Of a stretch of DNA of 32,000 nt, positions 1,444 to 19,021 are shown piece after piece (the first letter of the stretch is position 1; each line of letters opens with the position of its first letter). This stretch comes from Geobacter metallireducens GS-15 (GTDB lineage: Bacteria; Desulfobacterota; Desulfuromonadia; Geobacterales; Geobacteraceae): assembly GCF_000012925.1 (NCBI RefSeq), contig NC_007517.1:990001-1022000 (forward strand), written 5' to 3'. The notes beneath the pieces were generated by a model. It saw only the letters and a list, made by a program, of their open reading frames with translations, did no database searches and had not been told where the DNA came from. The position numbers were made by a program, and so were the translations under genes.

Positions 1444-1989
1444 GTGAAGATCGGCGAGCGGTTGAAGCGGCTCAGGATGATCAACTCCCTCACCCAGGAG
1501 GAACTGGCAAATCGGGCCGACCTGACCAAAGGGTACATCTCCCAGTTGGAGAACGACGCCACATCTCCCTCCATCGCCACCCTGAAGGATATCCTCGACG
1601 TCTTCGGCGTCAGTATGCAGGAGTTCTTCAGTGACCCCATCGGCGAGGATGTGGTCTACGGCAAGGATGCCCGGGTCCAGCCCTCGGCCGACGACGCGGC
1701 CGTCACGGTGGAGCTTCTTGTCCCCGGCGCCCAGAACCGGGAGATGGACCCGGCCCTGGTGACCCTGGCCCCGGGCGAGGAGATGGACGAGCAGAATTTC
1801 CACGAGGGGGAGGAATTCGGTTTTGTCCTCCTCGGGAAGATCCAACTCCGGTTGGATGACAAGATCTACACGGTGAAGAAGGACGAGTGCTTCTACTTCA
1901 CCTCGGACAAGCGGCACACGGTGAAGAATATCGGCAAGGGGTCGGCCCGAATACTATGGGTCGTAACCCCGCCTACCTTTGATTATTAA
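1444..1989 (+). CDS. XRE-family HTH plus C-terminal cupin transcriptional regulator (PuuR-like architecture)
   Basis: GTG start with AGGAG at 1431-1435. The N-terminus IGERLKRLRMINSLTQEELANRADLTKGYISQLEN is a classic HTH_3. The C-terminus EGEEFGFVLLGKIQLRLDDKIYTVKKDECFYFTSDKRHTVKN is cupin-like. Confidence 0.85.
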   Translation: MKIGERLKRLRMINSLTQEELANRADLTKGYISQLENDATSPSIATLKDILDVFGVSMQEFFSDPIGEDVVYGKDARVQPSADDAAVTVELLVPGAQNREMDPALVTLAPGEEMDEQNFHEGEEFGFVLLGKIQLRLDDKIYTVKKDECFYFTSDKRHTVKNIGKGSARILWVVTPPTFDY

Positions 1990-2046
1990 CGAAAATATCG
2001 CGTTCTCAAGAATCGTTACACGGATTTTGCCTACTATATTAGTTCA

Positions 2047-2175
2047 AGCGGCGTCAGATTCGTGATGATAACGGCGGATGAGAGGAGAGAGGCCCGCAGG
2101 CGTAGCAGCGCTACGTCGAGGAGCCTCTCGACGAGCAGACGTCGTTAGCGCGCGAATATGGCGTCGTTCAGGAGG
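2047..2175 (+). promoter_or_regulatory. Structured 5' leader element, copy A (forward orientation); function unknown
   Basis: About 85% identical to 4877-5003. Contains the core GGCCCGCAGGCGTAGCAGCGCTACG and a long closing helix (2058-2064/2151-2157 and 2069-2076/2140-2147). It runs into the SD (AGGAGG 2170-2175) of the downstream gene. Confidence 0.75.
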
Positions 2176-2179
2176 AAAC

Positions 2180-3373
2180 ATGAGCAAGGTACTGATAATC
2201 GGAGCCGGCGGCGTCGGCCAGGTCGTTGCACACAAATGCGCCCAGCGCCGGGACATCTTCAGCGAGATCACCCTGGCCTCTCGGACCAAGTCCAAGTGTG
2301 ACGCCATCGCTGCCCAGCTGAATAACACCATTGCCACGGCCCAGGTGAATGCCGACAACGTCCCCGAACTGGTGGCGCTCATCAGGAAGGAGCAACCGAA
2401 GCTCGTCATCAACGTGGCCCTGCCGTACCAGGATCTGACCATCATGGACGCCTGCCTGGAAACCGGCGTGGACTATCTCGACACCGCCAACTACGAGCCC
2501 CTGGACACCGCCAAGTTCGAGTACTCCTGGCAGTGGGCCTACCAGGAGCGCTTCAAGGCTGCGGGGCTCATGGCGTTGCTGGGTTCCGGCTTCGATCCGG
2601 GCGTCACCAACGTCTATACGGCACTAGCCGCCAAGAAGTACCTGGATGAGGTGGAGGAGCTCGACATCATCGACGCCAACGCCGGCAGCCACGGCCAGCC
2701 CTTCGCCACCAACTTCAACCCGGAGATCAATATCCGTGAAGTGACCGCCGTCTGCCGCCACTGGGAGAACGGCCAGTTCGTGGAGTCGCCGCCCCTCTCC
2801 ACCAAGCGGGTCTTCGACTTCCCCGAGGGCATCGGCCCTATGAACATCTACCGCCTTTACCACGAGGAGATGGAGTCCATCGTCAAGCATATCCCGACCA
2901 TCAAGAAGGCCCAGTTCTGGATGACCTTCTCCGACAACTACCTGAAGCACCTGGAAGTGCTCCAGAACGTGGGGATGACCCGCATCGACGAGGTGGAGTT
3001 CCAGGGGCAGAAGATCGTCCCGATCCAGTTTCTGAAGGCGCTCCTTCCCGATCCCGGCTCCCTCGGCCCCCTCACCAAGGGGAAGACCTGCATCGGCGTC
3101 ATTGCCCGGGGGCTCAAGGACGGCAAGCGCAAGCAGGTGTACATCTACAACATCTGCGACCACGAGGCCTGCTACAAAGAGGTCCAGTCCCAGGCTATCA
3201 GCTACACCACCGGCGTTCCGGCAGTGGTCGGAGCTATTATGATGCTCACCGGCAAGTGGCACGCACCGGGCGTCTGGAACATGGAGCAGTTCGATCCGGA
3301 GGTGTTCCTCAAGGAGCTGGGCCCCATGGGGCTGCCGGAAGTGGCTGTGGAAGGCGAGTGGCCTGAACTGTAG
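2180..3373 (+). CDS. Carboxy(nor)spermidine dehydrogenase (saccharopine dehydrogenase family)
   Basis: The preferred start is ATG 2180 (MSKVLIIGAGGVGQ, a Rossmann GxGxxG motif) preceded by AGGAGG. The 34 codons upstream in ORF 2078.. overlap the leader element. Size is 397 aa, and the gene sits next to nspC and speA. Confidence 0.8.
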   Translation: MSKVLIIGAGGVGQVVAHKCAQRRDIFSEITLASRTKSKCDAIAAQLNNTIATAQVNADNVPELVALIRKEQPKLVINVALPYQDLTIMDACLETGVDYLDTANYEPLDTAKFEYSWQWAYQERFKAAGLMALLGSGFDPGVTNVYTALAAKKYLDEVEELDIIDANAGSHGQPFATNFNPEINIREVTAVCRHWENGQFVESPPLSTKRVFDFPEGIGPMNIYRLYHEEMESIVKHIPTIKKAQFWMTFSDNYLKHLEVLQNVGMTRIDEVEFQGQKIVPIQFLKALLPDPGSLGPLTKGKTCIGVIARGLKDGKRKQVYIYNICDHEACYKEVQSQAISYTTGVPAVVGAIMMLTGKWHAPGVWNMEQFDPEVFLKELGPMGLPEVAVEGEWPEL

Positions 3374-3383
3374 GAGGAGCGCA

Positions 3384-3501
3384 ATCTTCCGACCATCTCC
3401 CCGCCGTCCTCGGAATGCTCGTTGTGCGGCGTAGCGCTGCTACGCCTCCGCCGGCATCCCTGCGGGTGCGAGGATCTGGCCGAAATCTTGCGCTCCGGCG
3501 G
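3384..3501. repeat. Structured element, copy B (inverted and diverged relative to A/D)
   Basis: Starts 11 nt after the stop codon at 3371-3373. About 85% identical to 4730-4847. Contains the hairpin GGCGTAGC-gct-GCTACGCC and CCTGCGGG, the reverse complement of the A/D core. Confidence 0.75.
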
Positions 3502-3559
3502 TTAAGGCGCTTACTCTGTCTTCCTCTGTGACCTCTGTGGTTAATGCTTTGAAAAGGTT

Positions 3560-4720
3560 TTGCATTTGACCGGCATCGACATTGAAAAAATCCTGAAGCT
3601 GGCCCCGTCCCCCGCCTACGTGGTGGACCTGGGGCGGCTGCGCCACAACCTGGCCATCCTCGACGATGTCCAGAAGCGTAGCGGCGCTAAGATCCTCATG
3701 GCCTTGAAGGCCTTCGCCATGTGGAGCGTTTTTCCCATCATCCGGGAGACCCTCCAGGGGGTCTGCGCCAGCTCGCCGTGGGAGGCCCGCCTGGGTCGGG
3801 AGGAGTTCGGACGGGAGGTCCACAGCTTTGCCGCCGCCTTCAAGGAGAGCGACGTGGTGGAGCTGCTTGCCGTCTCCAACCATCTGGTCTTCAACTCCTT
3901 CAACCAGCTGGAGCGGTTTCGCCCCCTGTGGGAGAAGGAGCGGGGGCGGGTGTCGGTGGGGTTGCGGGTGAACCCCGAGCATTCCGAAGGGCATACCCCC
4001 ATCTACGACCCCTGCGCCCCCAAGTCGCGGCTCGGCATCCCCCGCGCTGCGTTTGAGGGGAAGTCGCTTGCCGGAGTCGAGGGGCTCCACTTCCACACCC
4101 TCTGCGAACAGCTCTTCGAGCCTCTGGAGCGGACCGCGAAGGTCTTCGAGGAGAAGTTCGGGCCGCTGCTCCACGGCATGAAGTGGCTGAACCTCGGTGG
4201 CGGGCACCACATCACCCGCGCGGGGTACGACATCGACGCCCTGGTGGAGCTGGTCAAATACTTCAAGGGGAAGTACGGCGTTGAGGTCTACCTGGAGCCG
4301 GGGGAGGCCATCGCCATCGGCACCGGCGTCCTCGTGGGGGAGGTGCTGGACGTGGTGCGCAACGAGATGGAGATCGCCATCCTCGATGTCTCCGCCACCT
4401 GCCACATGCCAGACGTGCTGGAGATGCCCTACCGCCCCGGCATCACCGGCGGCTTCGACCCCGGCGAGAAGGCTCACACCTACCGGCTTGCCGGGCCGTC
4501 GTGCCTGGCCGGGGACGTCATCGGCGACTGGTCCTTTGACAAGCCCCTGAAACCGGGGGACCGGCTCGTGTTCGAGGACATGTCCCACTACACCATGGTG
4601 AAGACCACCACCTTTAACGGCATCCAGCATCCAGCCATCTGTACCTTTGAGCCGGAAACCGGGGAGCTCAGGGTGGTGCGGCGTTTCGGGTACGAGGATT
4701 TCAAGAGCAGATTGTCTTAA
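3560..4720 (+). CDS. nspC: Carboxy(nor)spermidine decarboxylase
   Basis: 386-aa ORF with the fold-III PLP decarboxylase layout (..PAYVVDLGRLRHNL.., ..LMALKAF.., ..LNLGGGHH.., ..YLEPGEAI.., ..AGPSCLAGD..). It is adjacent to the dehydrogenase partner. The TTG start at 3560 is uncertain; TTG 3566 is an alternative. Confidence 0.8.
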   Translation: MHLTGIDIEKILKLAPSPAYVVDLGRLRHNLAILDDVQKRSGAKILMALKAFAMWSVFPIIRETLQGVCASSPWEARLGREEFGREVHSFAAAFKESDVVELLAVSNHLVFNSFNQLERFRPLWEKERGRVSVGLRVNPEHSEGHTPIYDPCAPKSRLGIPRAAFEGKSLAGVEGLHFHTLCEQLFEPLERTAKVFEEKFGPLLHGMKWLNLGGGHHITRAGYDIDALVELVKYFKGKYGVEVYLEPGEAIAIGTGVLVGEVLDVVRNEMEIAILDVSATCHMPDVLEMPYRPGITGGFDPGEKAHTYRLAGPSCLAGDVIGDWSFDKPLKPGDRLVFEDMSHYTMVKTTTFNGIQHPAICTFEPETGELRVVRRFGYEDFKSRLS

Positions 4721-4729
4721 AGGGGCGAT

Positions 4730-4847
4730 ATCTTCCGACCATCTCGACGCCGTCCTCGTAAGCCTCGTTGTGCGGCGTAGCGCTGCTATGCCTCCGCCGG
4801 GCTTCCTGCGGGTGCGCCGATCTGGCCGAAATCTCTCACCCCGGTGG
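4730..4847. repeat. Structured element, copy C (same orientation as B)
   Basis: Starts 10 nt after the nspC stop. About 85% identical to copy B. Forms an imperfect inverted pair with copy D, 29 nt downstream. Confidence 0.75.
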
Positions 4848-4876
4848 TAAATAAAACACAAAATTGCATATCATAC

Positions 4877-5003
4877 AGCGGCGTCAGATTTGCGATGATT
4901 CCGTTGGCGGAGAGGAGGAAGGCCCGCAGGCGTAGCAGCGCTACGTAGAGGAGCCTGACGACGAGCCGACGGCGGAAGGGCGCAAATATGGCGTCGCCAG
5001 GAG
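4877..5003 (+). promoter_or_regulatory. Structured 5' leader element, copy D (forward orientation), upstream of speA
   Basis: About 85% identical to copy A, with the same helix geometry (4888-4894/4981-4987 and 4899-4903/4973-4977) maintained by compensatory substitutions. It is preceded by an AT-rich segment with a -10-like TATCAT (4869-4874). Copy A has TATATT (2035-2040) at the equivalent place. Confidence 0.75.
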
Positions 5004-5009
5004 ACCACT

Positions 5010-6917
5010 ATGGAACGCTGGTCGATCAACGACTCCGCAAAGATTTACAACCTCCCCAACTGGGGGGCTGACCTCTTCTCCATCAACAAGAAGGGGAACG
5101 TCTGCGTACACCCTTCCCCCACGTCGAAGCACTCCATCGACCTGCGGGCGCTGGTGGACGATCTCATCAAGCGCAAGATCAAGCCCCCGATCCTGCTACG
5201 GTTCATGGATGTCCTCCAGGGGCGGATCGCTGCCATCAACCGCGCCTTCAAGTACGCCATCGATGAGAACGACTACCCGTCCACGTACCAGACCTTCTAC
5301 CCCATCAAGGTGAACCAGCAGCGGCAGGTGGTGGAGGCCATCGCCAAGTTCGGCAAGCGTTACAACATCGGCATCGAGGTGGGCTCCAAGCCGGAGCTGG
5401 TGATCGGCATCTCCTTCGCCACGGGGAACGGCATCCCGATCATATGCAACGGCTACAAGGACAAGGAGTACATCGAGACGGTCCTCTACGCCACCAAGAT
5501 CGGCTACGACATCACCATCGTCGTGGAGAAGATGTTCGAGCTGGAGAAGATCATCGCCCTCTCCAAAAAGACCGGCATCAAGCCCAAGCTCGGCATTCGG
5601 GTGAAGCTCTCCTCCAAGGGGACCGGCAAATGGGCCACCTCCGGCGGCGAGGACGCCAAGTTCGGCCTCCGGATGTCGGAGATCATCGCTGCCATCGGGC
5701 TTCTGGAGCAGAACGAACTCCTTGATAGCGTGAAACTGATCCACTTCCACATCGGGAGCCAGATCACCAAGATCGACAAGATCAAGAGCGCCCTCATCGA
5801 GGGGACCCGGGTCTACGCCGAGATGCGGAAGCTGGGGGTCGGCATAGAGTACGTGGACATCGGCGGCGGCCTGGGGGTCGACTACGACGGCTCCAAGTCC
5901 AGCTACTTCTCCAGCGTCAACTACTCCATCGAGGAGTACGCCAACGACGTCATCTACCAAATCAAAAACATCTGCGAGGACGCCGGTGTCGAATGCCCCA
6001 ATATCATCTCCGAATCGGGCCGGGCCACGGCGGCCCACTACTCGGTGCTGGTGACGAACCTCCTCAACACCAATACCCAGAACCTGATGCCGGACTTTGA
6101 GGAAACCCTCAACGGCGCTGAGAAGCTGGCCCCCACGGTCAAGAAGCTGGTGGACATCTACAAGAGCATTGACCGCTATTCCCTTCGGGAGGACTACCAC
6201 GACACGGTACAACTCATCCAGGAGGCGGTGAGCCTTTTCAGTCTGGGGTACCTGACCCTTGCCGAACGGGCCATGGCCGAGTGGCTCCACGGCAAGATCC
6301 TGCGCAAGATCAACGGCATCGTGGAGAAGATTAAACCGATCCCCGAGGAGCTCCAGAACTTCCAGTTGAGCCTGCGGCAGACCTACTTTGCCAACTTCTC
6401 GTTGTTCCAGTCGATTCCCGACTCCTGGGCCATCGACCAGCTCTTTCCCATCGTGCCGATTCAGCGGCTCAACCAGAAGCCCGACGTCATGGCCTCCATC
6501 GCCGACATAACCTGCGACTCCGACGGGGAGATAACCAGCTTCGTCGGCGAGAACGGCCGGACGAAGTATCTGCCGCTCCACAAGATCCGCAAGGACGAGG
6601 ACTACTTCGTGGGCTTCTTCCTCATCGGCGCCTACCAGGAGATCCTGGGGGACATGCACAACCTCTTCGGCGACACCAACGCCGTGCATGTCACTTTCAA
6701 CAAGAAGACCGGCTACAAGATCGACACGGTCATCAACGGCGACGCCACGTGGGAGAGCCTGAAATACGTCCAGTACAAGGGACCGGAGATCCTCAAACAC
6801 GTCCGCGACACCATGGAGAAGGATGTGGCCCTGCGCAAGGTCTCCATCGAGGAGAGCAGCCACTTCCTGGAACTGCTGGACCGGACCCTCCTGGGGTATA
6901 CGTACCTGGGGGAATGA
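5010..6917 (+). CDS. speA: Biosynthetic arginine decarboxylase
   Basis: 635 aa. The N-terminus MERWSINDSAKIYNLPNWGADLFSINKKGNV and the motifs ..FYPIKVNQQ.., ..HFHIGSQ.., ..DIGGGLGVDY.. are characteristic of SpeA. Confidence 0.92.
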   Translation: MERWSINDSAKIYNLPNWGADLFSINKKGNVCVHPSPTSKHSIDLRALVDDLIKRKIKPPILLRFMDVLQGRIAAINRAFKYAIDENDYPSTYQTFYPIKVNQQRQVVEAIAKFGKRYNIGIEVGSKPELVIGISFATGNGIPIICNGYKDKEYIETVLYATKIGYDITIVVEKMFELEKIIALSKKTGIKPKLGIRVKLSSKGTGKWATSGGEDAKFGLRMSEIIAAIGLLEQNELLDSVKLIHFHIGSQITKIDKIKSALIEGTRVYAEMRKLGVGIEYVDIGGGLGVDYDGSKSSYFSSVNYSIEEYANDVIYQIKNICEDAGVECPNIISESGRATAAHYSVLVTNLLNTNTQNLMPDFEETLNGAEKLAPTVKKLVDIYKSIDRYSLREDYHDTVQLIQEAVSLFSLGYLTLAERAMAEWLHGKILRKINGIVEKIKPIPEELQNFQLSLRQTYFANFSLFQSIPDSWAIDQLFPIVPIQRLNQKPDVMASIADITCDSDGEITSFVGENGRTKYLPLHKIRKDEDYFVGFFLIGAYQEILGDMHNLFGDTNAVHVTFNKKTGYKIDTVINGDATWESLKYVQYKGPEILKHVRDTMEKDVALRKVSIEESSHFLELLDRTLLGYTYLGE

Positions 6918-8565: not shown

Positions 8566-8672
8566 GACAGGGACCAGGGACCAGGAACCGGGGACCGGCA
8601 AAACCCTATCTTTCCGGTCTTTACATTTTCGCCTTTCCTGGTCCCTGGTCCCCGATCCCCGGTCCCGGCTTT
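8566..8672. repeat. Long imperfect palindrome built from GGGACC / GGTCCC units
   Basis: A perfect 17-bp stem joins GGGACCAGGGACCAGGA (8570-8586) and TCCTGGTCCCTGGTCCC (8636-8652). There is an inner GACCGG/CCGGTC pair and further GGGGACCGG / CCGGTCCCGG units. It ends in CTTTTCC. Confidence 0.7.
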
Positions 8673-10654: not shown

Positions 10655-10737
10655 CCCGGAACAGAGGAGGTGAGAGAGATGACCCGGGGGGCGCACAAGG
10701 TGATGTTGCTGATTTTGTGAGAAAGGAGGTCCACTGA
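10655..10737 (+). promoter_or_regulatory. Conserved 5' leader of Pcc module 1
   Basis: Shares a conserved block with 15473-15554: CCGGA..AGGAGGTGAGAG..CCGGG..CGCA.A..GTGATGTTGC.GATTTTG.GAGAAAGGAGGTCCACTGA. Over the last 54 nt, 52 positions are identical. Confidence 0.6.
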
Positions 10738-11955
10738 ATGGGAATCAAATGGTTTACCCACATTCTCCTGCTTGCGGGTGTCGTCAGTGCTTCAACCGGT
10801 TTTGCGGCCCAGATCAACGGCAGGAGCTCAACGCAACTGATCTGGTTCAATGATTACTACTCCGGGCGCCAGGTGGAGCTGGTGGAGTATCTGCGGCTTT
10901 CCGTGACGAAGATCGACGAGGCCGGCAAGTTCTCCCTCTACGGTTACGGCCGCGGTTCGCAGGATCTGAACAACGGCGACGGACTGAACGGCAGACTCTA
11001 CTATCTCTATGCCGACTACCGGGGGCTGTTCGACAAGGTCGACTTCAGGCTCGGCCGGCAGTTTGTGAACAATTCCGCCGGGACCGCCCTTGTCGACGGC
11101 GGTCAGATCGACCTGAGAAACATCGGCCCCATCGGGTTCAACGTCTTCGGCGGCCGCGACGTCGTTTTCGGGATCAACGGCGAGGCGGGGCACAGCGGAA
11201 ACTACGCCATGGGGCTGTCGGCGTACCTTTCCGGATTCAGGAATACCGACCTGGACGTGAGCTGGTTCCGCAAGTGGGATGACGGTGACGTCTCCCGCGA
11301 TATCCTCGGCGCCTCGTTCAAGCAATACCTTTTCAACCGCCTGAAGCTCTATGGCAACGCCCGGTACGACGTGACGGCAGAGGTCTTCAACGAAGTGCTG
11401 GGAGGGGTCAAGTATTTCCCGATGGCCAACCTCATCTTTACCGGCGAGTGGTATCAGAGCTACCCCACCTTCGACACCACCTCGATTTACTCGGTCTTCG
11501 CCGTTAACCGCTACCAGGAGGGGGTCTTCCGGGTCGACTACACGATCAACGACATGATCGCCGTCAACGCCGGGTACAGCCGTCAGGACTATGGCGATGA
11601 CGGCATTGCCAACGTGTACGAACTGGGGTGCAGGCTCCATCCGATCAGCTCCGTGGAGATCGGGCTCGCCTACGATAAGCGCAATGGCTACGGCGGCAAG
11701 CTCGATGGCGGCCAGCTCGATGTGGCCTGGGACGTCACGAAGGGGCTCCAGCTCAGCGGCGGACTCACCTACGACGTCTACCAACGCGACTTCTATCTTG
11801 ACGGGAGCAGTCGCGAAACGGCCCAGAAATACTGGCTGGGGGGCAAGTACAAGCTTGCCAGGAATCTGCAGGCGTCTCTGCGTGTGGAAGACGCCATCAC
11901 CGCGCGGGACGAAAGCGATATCAACGGCCGCTTCGTTCTGGACTACGATTTCTAG
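10738..11955 (+). CDS. Outer-membrane porin-like beta-barrel of a porin-cytochrome complex (OmbB/OmbC-like)
   Basis: Has a signal peptide (..SASTGFA|AQ), an alternating beta-strand pattern rich in aromatic residues and Gly, and a C-terminal ..FVLDYDF ending in Phe. It is followed by two multiheme cytochrome genes. About 65% identical to the paralog at 15555..16766. Confidence 0.8.
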   Translation: MGIKWFTHILLLAGVVSASTGFAAQINGRSSTQLIWFNDYYSGRQVELVEYLRLSVTKIDEAGKFSLYGYGRGSQDLNNGDGLNGRLYYLYADYRGLFDKVDFRLGRQFVNNSAGTALVDGGQIDLRNIGPIGFNVFGGRDVVFGINGEAGHSGNYAMGLSAYLSGFRNTDLDVSWFRKWDDGDVSRDILGASFKQYLFNRLKLYGNARYDVTAEVFNEVLGGVKYFPMANLIFTGEWYQSYPTFDTTSIYSVFAVNRYQEGVFRVDYTINDMIAVNAGYSRQDYGDDGIANVYELGCRLHPISSVEIGLAYDKRNGYGGKLDGGQLDVAWDVTKGLQLSGGLTYDVYQRDFYLDGSSRETAQKYWLGGKYKLARNLQASLRVEDAITARDESDINGRFVLDYDF

Positions 11956-11970
11956 AAAGGGGGGATACCT

Positions 11971-12750
11971 GTGAGAAAATGGCTGATGTTCACTATGCTG
12001 CTGGCCATGGCGGCACTTTACTCACGGCAGGCGACAGCCGAACGCAAGGAAAACCACAAGGATTACGCCTCGTCGTCCATTGCAGAGTGCAGCAGTTGCC
12101 ACAAGGGCGAAGGGGTAGCCCCCAACCACGATTCCGACTGGGTGCGGGGACACCGCCTCGTGGCGCAGAAGCCGGGGAGGAATTGCAACGACTGTCACGA
12201 TCAGGCGTTCTGCCTCGATTGCCACACCGGCGGCGGTATCGACACCTCACCGTCCAACCAGACCTTCCGGCGCGACTACAAGCCGAAGAGCCACCGCAGT
12301 GATTTCCTCGAGATCCACCCCATCAAGGCAATGGATAATCCCCAGAGCTGCACCCGCTGCCACTCCGAGCAGAAATTCTGTATCGAGTGCCACGAGCGGT
12401 TCCGGGCGAACGATCTTCAGTTCCAGTCCCATCGCCGCCAATTCAGCGACATTCAGCTCTCGAACGTCGGGCCCAAGCACGAAGGCTTCTCGGCGACCCA
12501 GTGCCAGAGCTGCCATCCGGGCGGCATGCTCCCGACCCACAAATGGTCGGCCGACCATGCCGTGGAGGCACGCCGGAACCTTCAGGCCTGCCAGACATGC
12601 CACAGCGAAGGGGATGTCTGCATGAGGTGCCACAGTGCCCGTACCGGTCTCAAGGTGAGCCCCCATCCGCGCAATTGGGATTCGGTCAAGGGGAACTACC
12701 GGGACAAGAGCAACGGCAGAAGCTGCGTCAAGTGCCATGACCATTTTTAG
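11971..12750 (+). CDS. Periplasmic multiheme c-type cytochrome (OmaB/OmaC-like), 9 CXXCH motifs
   Basis: GTG start after AAAGGGGGGA. Signal peptide present. The CXXCH motifs counted in the translation are CSSCH, CNDCH, CLDCH, CTRCH, CIECH, CQSCH, CQTCH, CMRCH and CVKCH. Confidence 0.85.
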   Translation: MRKWLMFTMLLAMAALYSRQATAERKENHKDYASSSIAECSSCHKGEGVAPNHDSDWVRGHRLVAQKPGRNCNDCHDQAFCLDCHTGGGIDTSPSNQTFRRDYKPKSHRSDFLEIHPIKAMDNPQSCTRCHSEQKFCIECHERFRANDLQFQSHRRQFSDIQLSNVGPKHEGFSATQCQSCHPGGMLPTHKWSADHAVEARRNLQACQTCHSEGDVCMRCHSARTGLKVSPHPRNWDSVKGNYRDKSNGRSCVKCHDHF

Positions 12751-14994: not shown

Positions 14995-15027
14995 AAAAAA
15001 GCCCCGGAGCAATCCGGGGCTTTTTTC
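14995..15027 (+). terminator. Rho-independent terminator ending Pcc module 1
   Basis: GCCCCGGA (15001-15008), loop gcaa, TCCGGGGC (15013-15020), then TTTTTT. Preceded by an A-tract. Confidence 0.8.
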
Positions 15028-15472: not shown

Positions 15473-15554
15473 ACCGGATCGAAGGAGGTGAGAGGGGCCA
15501 ACCGGGTTCGCAAATTGTGATGTTGCAGATTTTGAGAGAAAGGAGGTCCACTGA
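15473..15554 (+). promoter_or_regulatory. Conserved 5' leader of Pcc module 2
   Basis: Counterpart of 10655-10737; see that entry. Confidence 0.6.
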
Positions 15555-16766
15555 ATGGGAATCAAAGGGTTTACCCGCCTGCTCCTGCTGGCCGGCGTCC
15601 TCAGCGCATCGAGCGGTCTTGCGGCCGAGATCCACGGCAGAAGCTCGACTCAACTCTCCTGGTTCAACAACTATTATAACGACAAGAAACAGGTTGAGCT
15701 TGGTGAGTACCTGCGCCTGTCGGTCACGAACCTCGACAAAGAGGGAAAGGCCTCGATCTACGGTTACGGTAGGATCACTCAGGACCTGAACAACGGCGAA
15801 GGATTCAACAGCAGGCTCTACTACCTCTATGGCGAGTATCGCGATCTGTACGACAAGGTCGACATCCGGCTGGGACGGCAGTTTATCAACCAGGCAGCGG
15901 GATCGGCCATTATCGACGGCGGCCAGATTGATCTCAAAAATGTCGGTCCCGTCGCATTGTCCGTGTACGGCGGTCGCAACGTCATCTTCGGCCTGGACAA
16001 CGAGTCCGGTCACGGCGGCGATCTCGCTTTTGGCGCCGCTGCCTACCTTCAGGGGTTCAAGAATACCGATCTTGAGGTGAGCTGGCTCCGGAAGTGGGAC
16101 CAGTGGGACATCGCCCGCGACACCCTCGGGGCGAGCTTCAAGCAGTACCTGTTCAACAGTGTCCGGCTGTACGGCAACACGAGATTCGACCTGGTTTCGG
16201 AAACATTCAACGAAGTGCTTGCAGGCGTTAAGTACTATCCGCTCAGCAACCTGGTCTTCACCGGCGAGTGGTATCAGAGCTATCCGACCTTCGACACTAC
16301 GTCGATCTATTCGGTTTTCGCCGTTGACCGCTACCAGGAGGCGGTTTTCCGCGCCGACTACACCTTCAATGACATGGTATCCGTCAACGGCGGGTACACC
16401 TCCCAGTGGTTCGGGGAAGGCGGGCGTGGTCATATCTATCATCTCGGGACCGGCGTGCGGCCCTTCGAGCCGCTGCTGATCAATGTCGAGTTCGACAACA
16501 ACCAGGGCTACAACGGCAAGACCAACGGCGTTCTGGTCGATGCATTCTATGATGTAACAAAGAGCCTTCAGGTAGCCGGCGGCCTCGGCTATGACGTCTA
16601 CAAGCGTGATGTCATGAACAACGATGAGATCGCCCGGACCTACTGGCTCGGCGGCAAGTACAAACTGGCCAAGAGCATGACCGCCTCGCTGCGCGTGGAA
16701 AACAACGTGAATGCCAGGTACGAGAACGACACGCAAGGACGCTTCGTCTTTGACTACGATTTCTAG
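15555..16766 (+). CDS. Outer-membrane porin-like beta-barrel (second OmbB/OmbC-like paralog)
   Basis: 403 aa with a signal peptide and a C-terminal ..FVFDYDF. Collinear with 10738..11955 at about 65% identity. Confidence 0.8.
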   Translation: MGIKGFTRLLLLAGVLSASSGLAAEIHGRSSTQLSWFNNYYNDKKQVELGEYLRLSVTNLDKEGKASIYGYGRITQDLNNGEGFNSRLYYLYGEYRDLYDKVDIRLGRQFINQAAGSAIIDGGQIDLKNVGPVALSVYGGRNVIFGLDNESGHGGDLAFGAAAYLQGFKNTDLEVSWLRKWDQWDIARDTLGASFKQYLFNSVRLYGNTRFDLVSETFNEVLAGVKYYPLSNLVFTGEWYQSYPTFDTTSIYSVFAVDRYQEAVFRADYTFNDMVSVNGGYTSQWFGEGGRGHIYHLGTGVRPFEPLLINVEFDNNQGYNGKTNGVLVDAFYDVTKSLQVAGGLGYDVYKRDVMNNDEIARTYWLGGKYKLAKSMTASLRVENNVNARYENDTQGRFVFDYDF

Positions 16767-16781
16767 AAAGGGGGAGAATCC

Positions 16782-17468
16782 GTGAAGAAATGGTTAATCG
16801 CACTACTGCTCCTCGCGGCGTCGACCTTCTCAGTTCAAATGGCGTTGGCTGACAAGATGTCGCACAAGGAGTACGCTTCGACCCCCATCGCCGACTGCAA
16901 TTCGTGCCACAAGGGAGAGGGGGTTGCCCCGAACCATGACACGGACTGGCTCCGTGGGCACCGGGTTCTTGCCGGCAAGGCGGGAAGCAACTGCTACCAG
17001 TGCCACACCCAGCAGTTCTGCCTCGACTGTCACAAGGGGGGCGGGATAGATGCCAAGCTGTCGACCCGCAACTATCAGCGTGACTATGTACCCAAGAGCC
17101 ACCGGACGGATTTCATCAGCATCCACCCGATCAAGGCCCTGGACAATCCCCAGAGCTGCAACCGCTGCCACGAGCCGTCCTACTGCAACGAGTGCCACAG
17201 CCGGTTCCCGAAGGGGTCCCTGCGGATCAAGTCGCACCTGAGGAGCGGCACCACCCAGACTTTCATCTGGAACAGCGAGCATGCCACCGAGGCCCGCAGG
17301 AACCTCCAGTCATGCCAGACCTGTCACCCTGACGGCGATGTCTGCCTGAAATGCCACGCCACCAGCGGCAAGGGCGGTACCGGCATCAGCCCGCACCCCA
17401 GAAACTTTAAGGGTGGCAACATCATCGATCGTAGCGACCGGTCCTGCCGGAAGTGCCACACCCTCTAG
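16782..17468 (+). CDS. Periplasmic octaheme c-type cytochrome (OmaB/OmaC-like paralog)
   Basis: GTG start after AAAGGGGGAGA. Signal peptide present. The 8 CXXCH motifs are CNSCH, CYQCH, CLDCH, CNRCH, CNECH, CQTCH, CLKCH and CRKCH. Confidence 0.85.
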   Translation: MKKWLIALLLLAASTFSVQMALADKMSHKEYASTPIADCNSCHKGEGVAPNHDTDWLRGHRVLAGKAGSNCYQCHTQQFCLDCHKGGGIDAKLSTRNYQRDYVPKSHRTDFISIHPIKALDNPQSCNRCHEPSYCNECHSRFPKGSLRIKSHLRSGTTQTFIWNSEHATEARRNLQSCQTCHPDGDVCLKCHATSGKGGTGISPHPRNFKGGNIIDRSDRSCRKCHTL

Positions 17469-18970: not shown

Positions 18971-18990
18971 CTTCTGCCATATCCTGCATA

Positions 18991-19021
18991 AAAAGCCCCC
19001 GCTTCGGCGGGGGTTTTTTTG
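18991..19021 (+). terminator. Rho-independent terminator ending Pcc module 2
   Basis: GCCCCCGC, loop ttcg, GCGGGGG, then TTTTTTT. Confidence 0.8.

Follow-up and report, generated by a model that had tools for sequence, protein, structure and literature searches.

A dispersed, strand-asymmetric hairpin family at gene boundaries of the polyamine operon of Geobacter metallireducens

The polyamine biosynthesis operon of Geobacter metallireducens GS-15 lies within the 32,000-nt stretch of contig NC_007517.1 that was analysed here (referred to as the window; positions are counted from its first letter), and four copies of a structured non-coding element, designated A to D, are found at the boundaries of the operon genes. 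The strand on which the core of the element reads AGGCGUAGCAGCGCUACG is called the F strand throughout. The arrangement of genes and elements is as follows.

1444..1989, plus strand: gene for a PuuR-like regulator with HTH (XRE) and cupin domains (NCBIfam PuuR model, E 1.7e-27, full length, below the curated cutoff)
2048..2167, plus strand: copy A (Gmet_R1010), an F-strand hairpin in the mRNA sense
2180..3373, plus strand: gene for carboxynorspermidine synthase/dehydrogenase (CANSDH), between A and B (NCBIfam carboxynorspermidine synthase, E 3e-123, below the curated cutoff; Pfam Sacchrp_dh)
3376..3496, minus strand: copy B (Gmet_R1011), a minus-strand hairpin, antisense to the operon
3566..4720, plus strand: nspC, carboxynorspermidine decarboxylase, between B and C (TIGR01047, 489 bits, above the curated cutoff)
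4722..4842, minus strand: copy C (Gmet_R1012), a minus-strand hairpin
4878..4997, plus strand: copy D (Gmet_R1013), an F-strand hairpin in the mRNA sense
5010..6917, plus strand: speA, biosynthetic arginine decarboxylase, with D upstream (TIGR01273, 892 bits)

The four copies lie where the first-pass annotation of this DNA had placed them, and their recurrence is real and far exceeds what chance would give. The 18-nt core AGGCGTAGCAGCGCTACG occurs four times in the window at no more than one mismatch (A and D on the plus strand, B and C on the minus strand), against a chance expectation of 0.02, with one further match at three mismatches inside nspC. A covariance model of the family (see below) assigns A to D scores of 95-103 bits (E about 1e-26 to 1e-28) and yields no other convincing score in the 32 kb; the matches span 2040-2175 for A (96 bits), 3368-3505(-) for B (99 bits), 4714-4851(-) for C (103 bits) and 4870-5005 for D (95.5 bits), and a scan with the same model past position 6917 found no copy 3' of speA in G. 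metallireducens. The calculated probability that four of the 24 copies in the genome would lie within 3 kb by chance is about 2e-5. Repeat finding gives 84% identity between 2047-2166 and 4877-4996 and 85% between 3375-3505 and 4721-4851, in agreement with the value of about 85% that had been claimed, and the 36-nt core common to A and D indeed contains a single differing base.

The description of the elements as hairpins of about 120 nt, with B and C inverted, was correct, and the helices that had been proposed for A (2058-2064/2151-2157 and 2069-2073/2143-2147) and for D (4888-4894/4981-4987 and 4899-4903/4973-4977) are present in the sequence as well as in the minimum-free-energy folds. Copy A (-71.3 kcal/mol, z -7.3) carries its apical hairpin GGCGTAGC-AGC-GCTACGTC at 2099-2117 and ends 2 nt ahead of the AGGAGG Shine-Dalgarno sequence (2170-2175) of the CANSDH gene, and copy D (-66.1 kcal/mol, z -6.2) ends 12 nt ahead of the speA ATG (5010), the Shine-Dalgarno sequence of which is AGGAGA; in both minimum-free-energy folds the Shine-Dalgarno sequence is unpaired and outside the closing helix. 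The hairpin of B has its base 2 nt past the TAG stop of the CANSDH gene (3371-3373) and that of C 1 nt past the TAA stop of nspC (4718-4720), which corrects the earlier distance of 10-11 nt. Both fold far better on the minus strand (B: -80.4 kcal/mol, z -7.0; C: -64.0 kcal/mol, z -5.4) than on the plus or mRNA strand (B: -60.2 kcal/mol, z -1.5; C: -49.0 kcal/mol, z -0.8), so that the suggestion that B and C act in the mRNA sense, which rested on one base pair, is contradicted by the folds of the whole elements. The proposed pairing between C and D does appear, in the centroid structure only, whereas the minimum-energy structure consists of two separate hairpins; long-range pairing was consequently rejected as the minimum-energy state and is kept as no more than an alternative within the ensemble.

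We identify A to D, with hardly any room for doubt, as Gmet_R1010-R1013, members of a dispersed family of non-coding hairpins. Aklujkar et al. 2009 (BMC Microbiol 9:109, PMC2700814) catalogued 24 "predicted short RNA elements, group 1" in their Additional files 4 and 5 as Gmet_R1001-R1024, and described the central palindrome GRCGTAGCGCTGCTACGCC for this family. The palindrome is carried by all four copies within an alignable element of about 113 nt (in C with one change of the G.U type), and the sequences of A to D match the rows R1010, R1011, R1012 and R1013 of Additional file 4. The published positions are 992050-992163 (-) for R1010, 993381-993494 (+) for R1011, 994727-994840 (+) for R1012 and 994880-994993 (-) for R1013 (PMC2700814), and a constant offset connects them to ours for all four copies (window coordinate + 989,997 = genome coordinate; for instance, 3384 corresponds to 993381 and 4730 to 994727). 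The neighbouring genes of A to D are Gmet_0902-0904. The elements have thus been known since 2009 as a repeat family. The 2009 account consists of a BLAST alignment together with a table of the adjoining genes, and it reads the elements as short RNAs with a putative regulatory role, "e.g. 5' of lysine/arginine metabolism genes" (PMC2700814). It orients the family along the strand that folds less well, whereas we use the opposite strand, and the strand asymmetry, the polarity with respect to open reading frame (ORF) boundaries, the spread across phyla and the conservation of orthologous copies that are described below are absent from it.

The remaining 20 copies of the genome adjoin genes such as hemE, nuoBCD, dapL, nifD and those for cytochrome oxidase subunit IV and transketolase, as well as genes for aldehyde:ferredoxin oxidoreductase and both ETF subunits, cysT, fliK, flhB, a phage baseplate gene and others (PMC2700814). 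The first-pass annotation had left open three options for the elements, i.e. a cis-regulatory RNA responsive to polyamines, agmatine or arginine, a protein-bound leader, or a family of REP-like repeats whose concentration at this locus is fortuitous. The tabulation of flanking genes over the 24 genomic sites speaks against the first of these and the evidence favours the third; since the neighbours are unrelated genome-wide, which is the outcome that the annotation itself had set against a regulatory RNA, that reading fails.

Each element forms one hairpin of about 120-135 nt that lacks a multi-stem junction. A covariance model (R1) was built from 28 diverse copies and describes a family hairpin with strong covariation. 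The order of modules in the aligned copies is an outer stem, GAUUUU, CAGRUCAAGGC and a variable stem, followed by CSGNAGGCGUAGCAGCGCUACGYCG with AGGA or CACAAG, again a variable stem, ACGCCGAGAUGGC...AAAAG and the other side of the outer stem. The apical hairpin is near-invariant (GGCGUAGC-AGC-GCUACGYC), while the flanking stems differ among subfamilies yet remain complementary. In the alignment to the covariance model 85.2% of the cells are paired as compared to 65.0% after shuffling, the covariation score amounts to 0.496 (0.168 shuffled, at most 0.147 with slid partners) and double changes occur in 27 of the 31 pairs, figures that lean towards the structure because the alignment was fitted to the model. 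An independent MAFFT/RNAalifold run finds compensatory changes in 14 of 21 pairs. The near-invariant appearance of the apical stem is partly due to the way in which copies were retrieved, and eight of the 24 G. metallireducens copies depart from the core pattern, some of them by compensatory changes (R1008, R1022, R1023). The compensatory changes to which the first-pass annotation had drawn attention are therefore real, but they are a property of the whole family and not special to the two leader copies. In otherwise normal copies (L030 and L035; L061 and L129:2935-3022) we observed small secondary insertions just 3' of the invariant core, with TAGCGCTGAAGCTTCACTACGTGCTC and ATTTCGCTTGTGAAATTGGACCGCGA as examples, the same position having been struck twice independently.

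The family extends well beyond Geobacter. A scan for exact matches to a 21-nt core pattern, with one genome per species, recovered at least 120 further loci from several phyla, a count that is a lower bound. Among the matches listed are Geobacterales, Desulfuromonadales, Desulfosarcina (including two complete genomes), Desulfopila, Myxococcales, Anaeromyxobacter and Bradymonadales, as well as Nitrospirota, Syntrophorhabdaceae and Acidobacteriota, with Desulfobacterales, Myxococcota and some Bacillota and Bacteroidota at the higher ranks; single matches on megabase-scale contigs were found in Christensenellales, Victivallales and one metagenome-assembled genome (MAG) of the Lewinellaceae. The covariance model recovers 132 copies in 97 sources, many of which are without the exact core. 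Rfam 15 gives no gathering-score match in the window and nothing relevant at E<=10 in 1900-5100, nor any match overlapping the elements in eight loci from other taxa. An association with phages was dismissed because of the near-absence of the family from viral contigs: 2.9 million of these contain just four core matches, three of which are core-only and one of which is a weak partial match at a contig end. Among Logan assemblies with the CANSDH gene (L001-L010), many contigs end exactly 78 nt past the CANSDH stop, just beyond the core of B, and others begin about 104-120 nt ahead of the gene, close to the 5' end of A. Assemblies thus break at the repeated core, and in draft genomes and MAGs the elements will as a consequence in many cases be absent or cut short.

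The preference for one strand that is seen in B and C holds for the family. The F strand folds better than its complement in 112 of 117 pattern matches and in 125 of 125 model matches, with a mean energy over the latter of -63.1 versus -48.6 kcal/mol and a mean z of -7.1 versus -4.2. On the F strand G.U cells outnumber A.C cells (368 versus 193), and this strand is purine-rich, with conserved purine-rich internal loops. The orientation of the elements relative to genes was determined for 108 classifiable copies, the ORFs being those of a caller written for the analysis and based on GC3 (the G+C content of third codon positions). The 3' end of the F strand points toward a stop codon (within 25 nt) in 78 of these copies and toward a start codon (within 40 nt) in nine, and the F 5' end points toward a stop codon in eight. 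Because it is the F 3' end that faces the ORF, copies located before a start are in the mRNA sense and copies located after a stop are antisense, and about 80% of the copies are antisense to the adjoining gene. The state of B and C (after a stop, well-folding strand antisense) is hence that of the majority, and the state of A and D (sense, before a Shine-Dalgarno sequence or start) that of a minority. Tight spacers as the sole cause of the spacing were rejected: they fit the spacers within operons, yet convergent genes show this polarity too, the element abutting, in 11 of 17 pairs, the gene that it runs antisense to. A bias with respect to the replication strand is weak (15 of the 24 published coordinates), the orientation relative to genes being the stronger one.

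The bracketing of every gene is likewise a habit of the family and not specific to polyamine genes. At locus L114 (3471-7908) four copies occupy every nifHDK junction (E> nifH <E nifD <E nifK <E, where E denotes the element), and in Geobacter sp. AOG1 (L127, 361-6138) five antisense copies of the same orientation stand behind five stop codons in a row, in an operon that, to judge by how the ORF translations end, looks like one for arginine biosynthesis.

Within the polyamine operon the occupancy varies between species. Five sites were distinguished, namely R, which follows the regulator gene, A and B, which respectively precede and follow CANSDH, C, which follows nspC, and D, which precedes speA. 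They are occupied as follows.

G. metallireducens: A, B, C and D
Geobacter sp. DSM 9736: R, A, B, C and D, and one copy after speA
G. sulfurreducens: B and C, and a remnant of D with an internal deletion
G. pickeringii: B and D
Geobacter sp. OR-1: D only, with a gap of 4 nt between CANSDH and nspC
Geotalea uraniireducens: R, A and a weak C
G. daltonii: a partial R
Geomobilimonas luticola: R and A
Metagenomic contigs: R, A and B; B; D; B+1; one copy after speA

All of these copies are antisense when beside a stop and sense when beside a start. The operon of the Geobacterales is one hot spot of the family, with variable occupancy, and the subtype of A and D is frequent around it but not exclusive to it, as copies of this subtype are also found antisense after CANSDH and beside other genes. 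The speA leader of G. sulfurreducens (L152, 4934-5000) retains the D-type outer stem and the 3' part (ACAGCGGCGT/TAGCGCGCAACTATGGCGTCGCCAGGAGA); the internal deletion of about 75 nt takes out the core of D, which implies that the full leader hairpin is dispensable in that species.

Several observations suggest that the family spread as a hairpin repeat able to move or to duplicate, i.e. the existence of subfamilies, the chimeric and nested copies, the filled versus empty sites and the independent insertions. In the Ga0209212 metagenome (L134, L135, L137, L139, L141, L143, L147) we observed near-identical chimeras, in which a full A/D-type copy is combined with a B/C-type 3' half (CGAGGACGGCGGCGAGATGGCTGTTTTTCAACA), and as these have differing left flanks they point to the recent amplification of a composite copy. 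The spacer between dapB and dapL holds different subtypes in different species, antisense in two and sense in a third, which implies independent insertions. The termini differ by subfamily (GGAAACG.../...CGTTTCC; AGGTTGCT.../...AGCAACCT; CAGCGGCGTCAGATT.../...AATATGGCG). Copy C is flanked on both sides by TAA, matching the empty site in OR-1, while the flanks of the other copies are inconsistent, so that a target-site duplication or a TA target is suggested for C but shows no consistency over the copies as a whole. When the 558 ORFs that neighbour the copies were clustered, only housekeeping families and no recurrent transposase or recombinase were found, and the neighbours of the copies in Bacillota, Bacteroidota and other taxa outside the Desulfobacterota are ordinary genes without a recurrent transposase-like protein.

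Once in place, the copies appear to be maintained. They cluster by position and not by genome, and are therefore orthologous. Between G. metallireducens and G. sulfurreducens the fourfold degenerate sites of the regulator, CANSDH, nspC and speA genes are 71-75% identical, as compared to 97.7% for copy B (three differences in 132 nt, gapless; binomial P 2e-14) and 92.4% for copy C (binomial P 2e-8). In the comparison with DSM 9736 the elements are 79-85% identical and the fourfold sites 44-55%. The orthologues carry compensatory substitutions, such as the change of the apical stem of C from GUAGC/GCUAC to GUGGC/GCCAC, and orthologous sense copies precede speA in the window and in L073, L136, L144, L153 and L157. 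Conservation far above the neutral level implies selection on the copies in place and not only on a transposing master copy, and these sequence comparisons make it probable that the copies have some function where they stand.

The explanation that in our view accounts best for the whole of these observations, and to which we lend moderate confidence, is that of a hairpin module of mobile origin that has been retained as a cis-acting element at ORF boundaries. How such a module would act on the mRNA can be proposed only tentatively. In the operon transcript A and D would form very stable 5' hairpins just ahead of free Shine-Dalgarno sites and would probably shield the 5' end or mark a processing site, and B and C would form weaker mRNA hairpins beginning 1-2 nt past the stop codons, which would probably serve as barriers to 3' exonucleases or as points at which cistrons are decoupled, comparable to REP, ERIC and Correia elements. 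We give this mechanism low weight because it leaves unexplained why most copies fold better on the strand that is not the mRNA. Several further points weigh against the explanation or its mechanism. An action on the mRNA provides no reason for selection on the fold of the non-mRNA strand, which concerns about 80% of the copies including B and C, and on the mRNA strand B and C barely exceed shuffled sequence (z -1.5 and -0.8). The primary-sequence identity of 97.7% in B is higher than a simple stability hairpin should need. Neither a mobilising enzyme, nor terminal inverted repeats with a target duplication, nor a parent element was found near the copies. Lastly, the speA-leader copy is kept in at least six lineages of the Geobacterales, and sense copies may have been co-opted locally for regulation.

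Of the other explanations, that of a single-stranded DNA site survives best, although we deem it unlikely. It holds that some strand-specific recombinase or HUH-type transposase acts on the F hairpin as its substrate, so that the copies would be mobile or recombinogenic DNA sites delimiting gene-sized modules, comparable to attC bottom strands, REP/REPIN-RAYT systems or the ends of IS200/IS605, and any effect on the mRNA would be incidental. It would account for a fold that is strand-specific whatever the direction of transcription, and the near-invariant apical hairpin with its fixed 3-nt loop is typical of DNA hairpins that are recognised by proteins; the position right after stops with the folding strand antisense and the uniform direction along operons resemble attC cassette arrays, and filled and empty sites, chimeras and a cross-phylum spread suit a mobile DNA site. 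Yet no recombinase or transposase recurs near the copies, the flanked genes form core operons of conserved order (arg, nif, dap, polyamine) rather than cassettes, the attC R-box consensus (RYYYAAC/GTTRRRY) is missing from the ends of the element, no consistent target-site duplication was found, and orthologous copies have remained stable, under purifying selection, from the divergence of the species onward.

Alternatively, the RNA copy of the F strand might be the active molecule, as a gate or insulator against antisense and read-through transcription heading into ORFs, with the sense copies as leader attenuators or 5' stabilisers and the antisense copies as terminators, processing sites or 5' modules of antisense transcripts. 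Among ideas at the RNA level this is the only one that covers both the universal preference for F and the consistent orientation of the F 3' end toward the ORF, be it at the start or the stop. The 11 of 17 convergent pairs in which the element abuts the gene it is antisense to and the purine-rich F strand with its conserved internal loops, as in structured RNAs, also agree with it. It nevertheless demands antisense transcription across many core operons, and neither promoter nor U-tract terminator signatures are present at the copies. In the window, a scan of 1900-5100 for promoter and terminator consensus sequences gave nothing tied to the elements, and a literature search for transcription start sites or antisense data of G. 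sulfurreducens over these sites found nothing usable. We regard such a role as rather improbable.

A still less probable proposal is a riboswitch or protein-bound leader that responds to polyamines, agmatine or arginine and comprises A and D or all four copies; we hold it to be highly probable that the copies are not ligand sensors specific to polyamines. The start codons of CANSDH and speA do have sense copies directly upstream, the orthologous speA leaders show compensatory changes and are conserved above fourfold sites, the A/D subtype is disproportionately found around polyamine genes, and the arg and dap operons are populated by copies as well. On the other hand, the same family with the same core adjoins unrelated genes at 20 other sites of the genome and at hundreds of sites elsewhere, about 80% of the copies are antisense after stop codons, and even the A/D subtype occurs antisense after CANSDH and beside other genes. 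Most of D has been lost in G. sulfurreducens, and OR-1 is without A, B and C. The structure, too, is unlike that of a sensor: a single hairpin with neither a junction nor a conserved pocket-like multiloop, a Shine-Dalgarno sequence that is not sequestered, no terminator-like site found and no Rfam match. Moreover, a PuuR-like regulator is encoded upstream. Its gene stands directly upstream of CANSDH-nspC-speA in every Geobacterales locus that was fetched (including L152-L157, L132, L133 and L144), often with an antisense copy of the repeat behind it, and judged by its sequence the protein is a conventional candidate for polyamine-responsive control.

Attenuation by a leader peptide, in which an arginine-rich upstream ORF (..ARRRSSAT..) that senses arginine for speA would start at the ATG within the GATGAT conserved in A and D, is scarcely credible and was rejected, for although open frames encoding RRRSS start at 2066 (28 codons) and 4896 (17 codons) and the ATG is conserved among A/D-type copies, this ATG is without a Shine-Dalgarno sequence, the length, the stop and the frame relative to speA differ in each orthologue (the stop comes after 17, 26 or 28 codons, or the frame reads through), the "peptide" is conserved just where the nucleotide core is invariant, wobble positions included, and the same core is mostly antisense to genes elsewhere.

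Returning to the retained hairpin module that we favour, the orientation of its copies leaves a more far-reaching version to be considered. It is possible, if on balance doubtful, that the family constitutes an unnamed, cross-phylum and strand-specific class of ORF-boundary elements under purifying selection, the real function of which is exerted via the non-mRNA strand; candidates for such a function are an attC-like single-stranded DNA site at which an enzyme still to be discovered would shuffle or duplicate modules the size of a gene, and a gate for transcription that arrives at genes from one side or the other. If this were true, the polyamine operon of Geobacter would offer a natural test bed, with 0-6 copies per species and a near-identical copy B in the tractable G. 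sulfurreducens.

The window contains other repeated features. In the spacer between an AAA-ATPase gene and an MFS gene four tandem GGGACCR heptamers (8568-8596) are followed, 44 nt on, by four inverted GGTCCCY heptamers (8640-8666). They belong to a second multicopy family, Gmet_H419/H420, of which 49 copies were listed by Aklujkar et al. 2009 (PMC2700814), and their site is the only weak extra match of the covariance model in the window. The segments 10687-12354 and 15504-17162 form a direct duplication (spacing about 4.8 kb, 71-82% identical) that contains a gene for a 405-aa protein and genes for multihaem c-type cytochromes, and that looks like a tandemly duplicated cluster. At the ends of the two cytochrome clusters, two palindromes composed of an A-run, a GC-hairpin and a T-run (14995-15025 and 18990-19020) resemble bidirectional intrinsic terminators.

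In comparison with known systems, the elements do not constitute a new polyamine riboswitch. They share with polyamine leader RNAs, such as the speF leader (RF00518) and the spermidine-sensing variants of the SAM riboswitch (PMC10853860), the location in a 5' leader (A and D) and a covarying structure, but they differ in that they have no consistent gene association or orientation, no multi-helix junction and no expression platform, and in that the same element also follows stop codons and stands beside unrelated genes. Two named motifs could be ruled out, namely the Chunjie MITE (for miniature inverted-repeat transposable element) of G. uraniireducens, which is AT-rich and has 21-bp terminal inverted repeats and 9-bp direct repeats, and the MRSC-65-2 motif, which carries UYCCGG repeats. 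In the text and supplement of Narunsky et al. 2024, in which a Geobacter genome was analysed, no matching motif was found.

The likeness to integron attC sites is more extensive, as these are imperfect hairpins of 57-141 nt located right after stops, with the folding strand antisense, a uniform direction within arrays and a structure that is conserved while the sequence is very variable. The conserved boxes of attC (RYYYAAC/GTTRRRY) lie, however, at the base of a hairpin with a variable apex, whereas in the present family the apex is invariant and the base variable. Furthermore, there is no intI and there are no cassette-like genes, but core biosynthetic operons, in addition to sense copies before starts.

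ERIC/IRU and Correia (NEMIS) elements resemble the family as imperfect palindromes of about 100-160 nt that are co-transcribed in either orientation, show filled and empty sites and form long RNA hairpins, which in their case change the processing or stability of the mRNA in an orientation-dependent way. They have defined terminal inverted repeats and TA duplications, whereas the termini here differ by subfamily, and unlike the present family they are confined to one family or genus and lack an invariant apical motif. By being multicopy, non-coding, within 100-400 bp in length and present at filled versus empty sites (A, B and C being empty in OR-1), the family resembles MITEs.

REP, BIME and REPIN sequences (Enterobacteria and Pseudomonas; mobilised by RAYT) are likewise extragenic, GC-rich, imperfectly palindromic and multicopy, and they often lie near stop codons and within operons, singly and as inverted doublets, with a hairpin that is maintained by compensatory change. 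REP elements are known as stabilisers of mRNA 3' ends, and Liang, Rudd and Deutscher are said to have found in 2015 that a REP affects translation termination when it lies about 15 nt or less from the stop codon. The REP unit measures 20-40 nt and has a 5' GTAG tail, whereas we find one hairpin of 120-135 nt with GTAG/CTAC inside the apical stem, and no RAYT gene was noticed nearby, no recurrent transposase-like protein having been found among the ORFs neighbouring the copies (the 558 ORFs and the loci outside the Desulfobacterota). REP families are lineage-specific, whereas the core described here is common to several phyla, and the strict orientation relative to ORFs is not a known property of REPs. 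The usual REP or MITE explanation falls short of this orientation rule because the better-folding strand is usually not the mRNA. What the present analysis adds to the family of 2009 is that it lies outside Rfam, reaches well beyond Geobacter, includes orthologous intercistronic copies that are conserved far above the neutral rate, and obeys an orientation rule.

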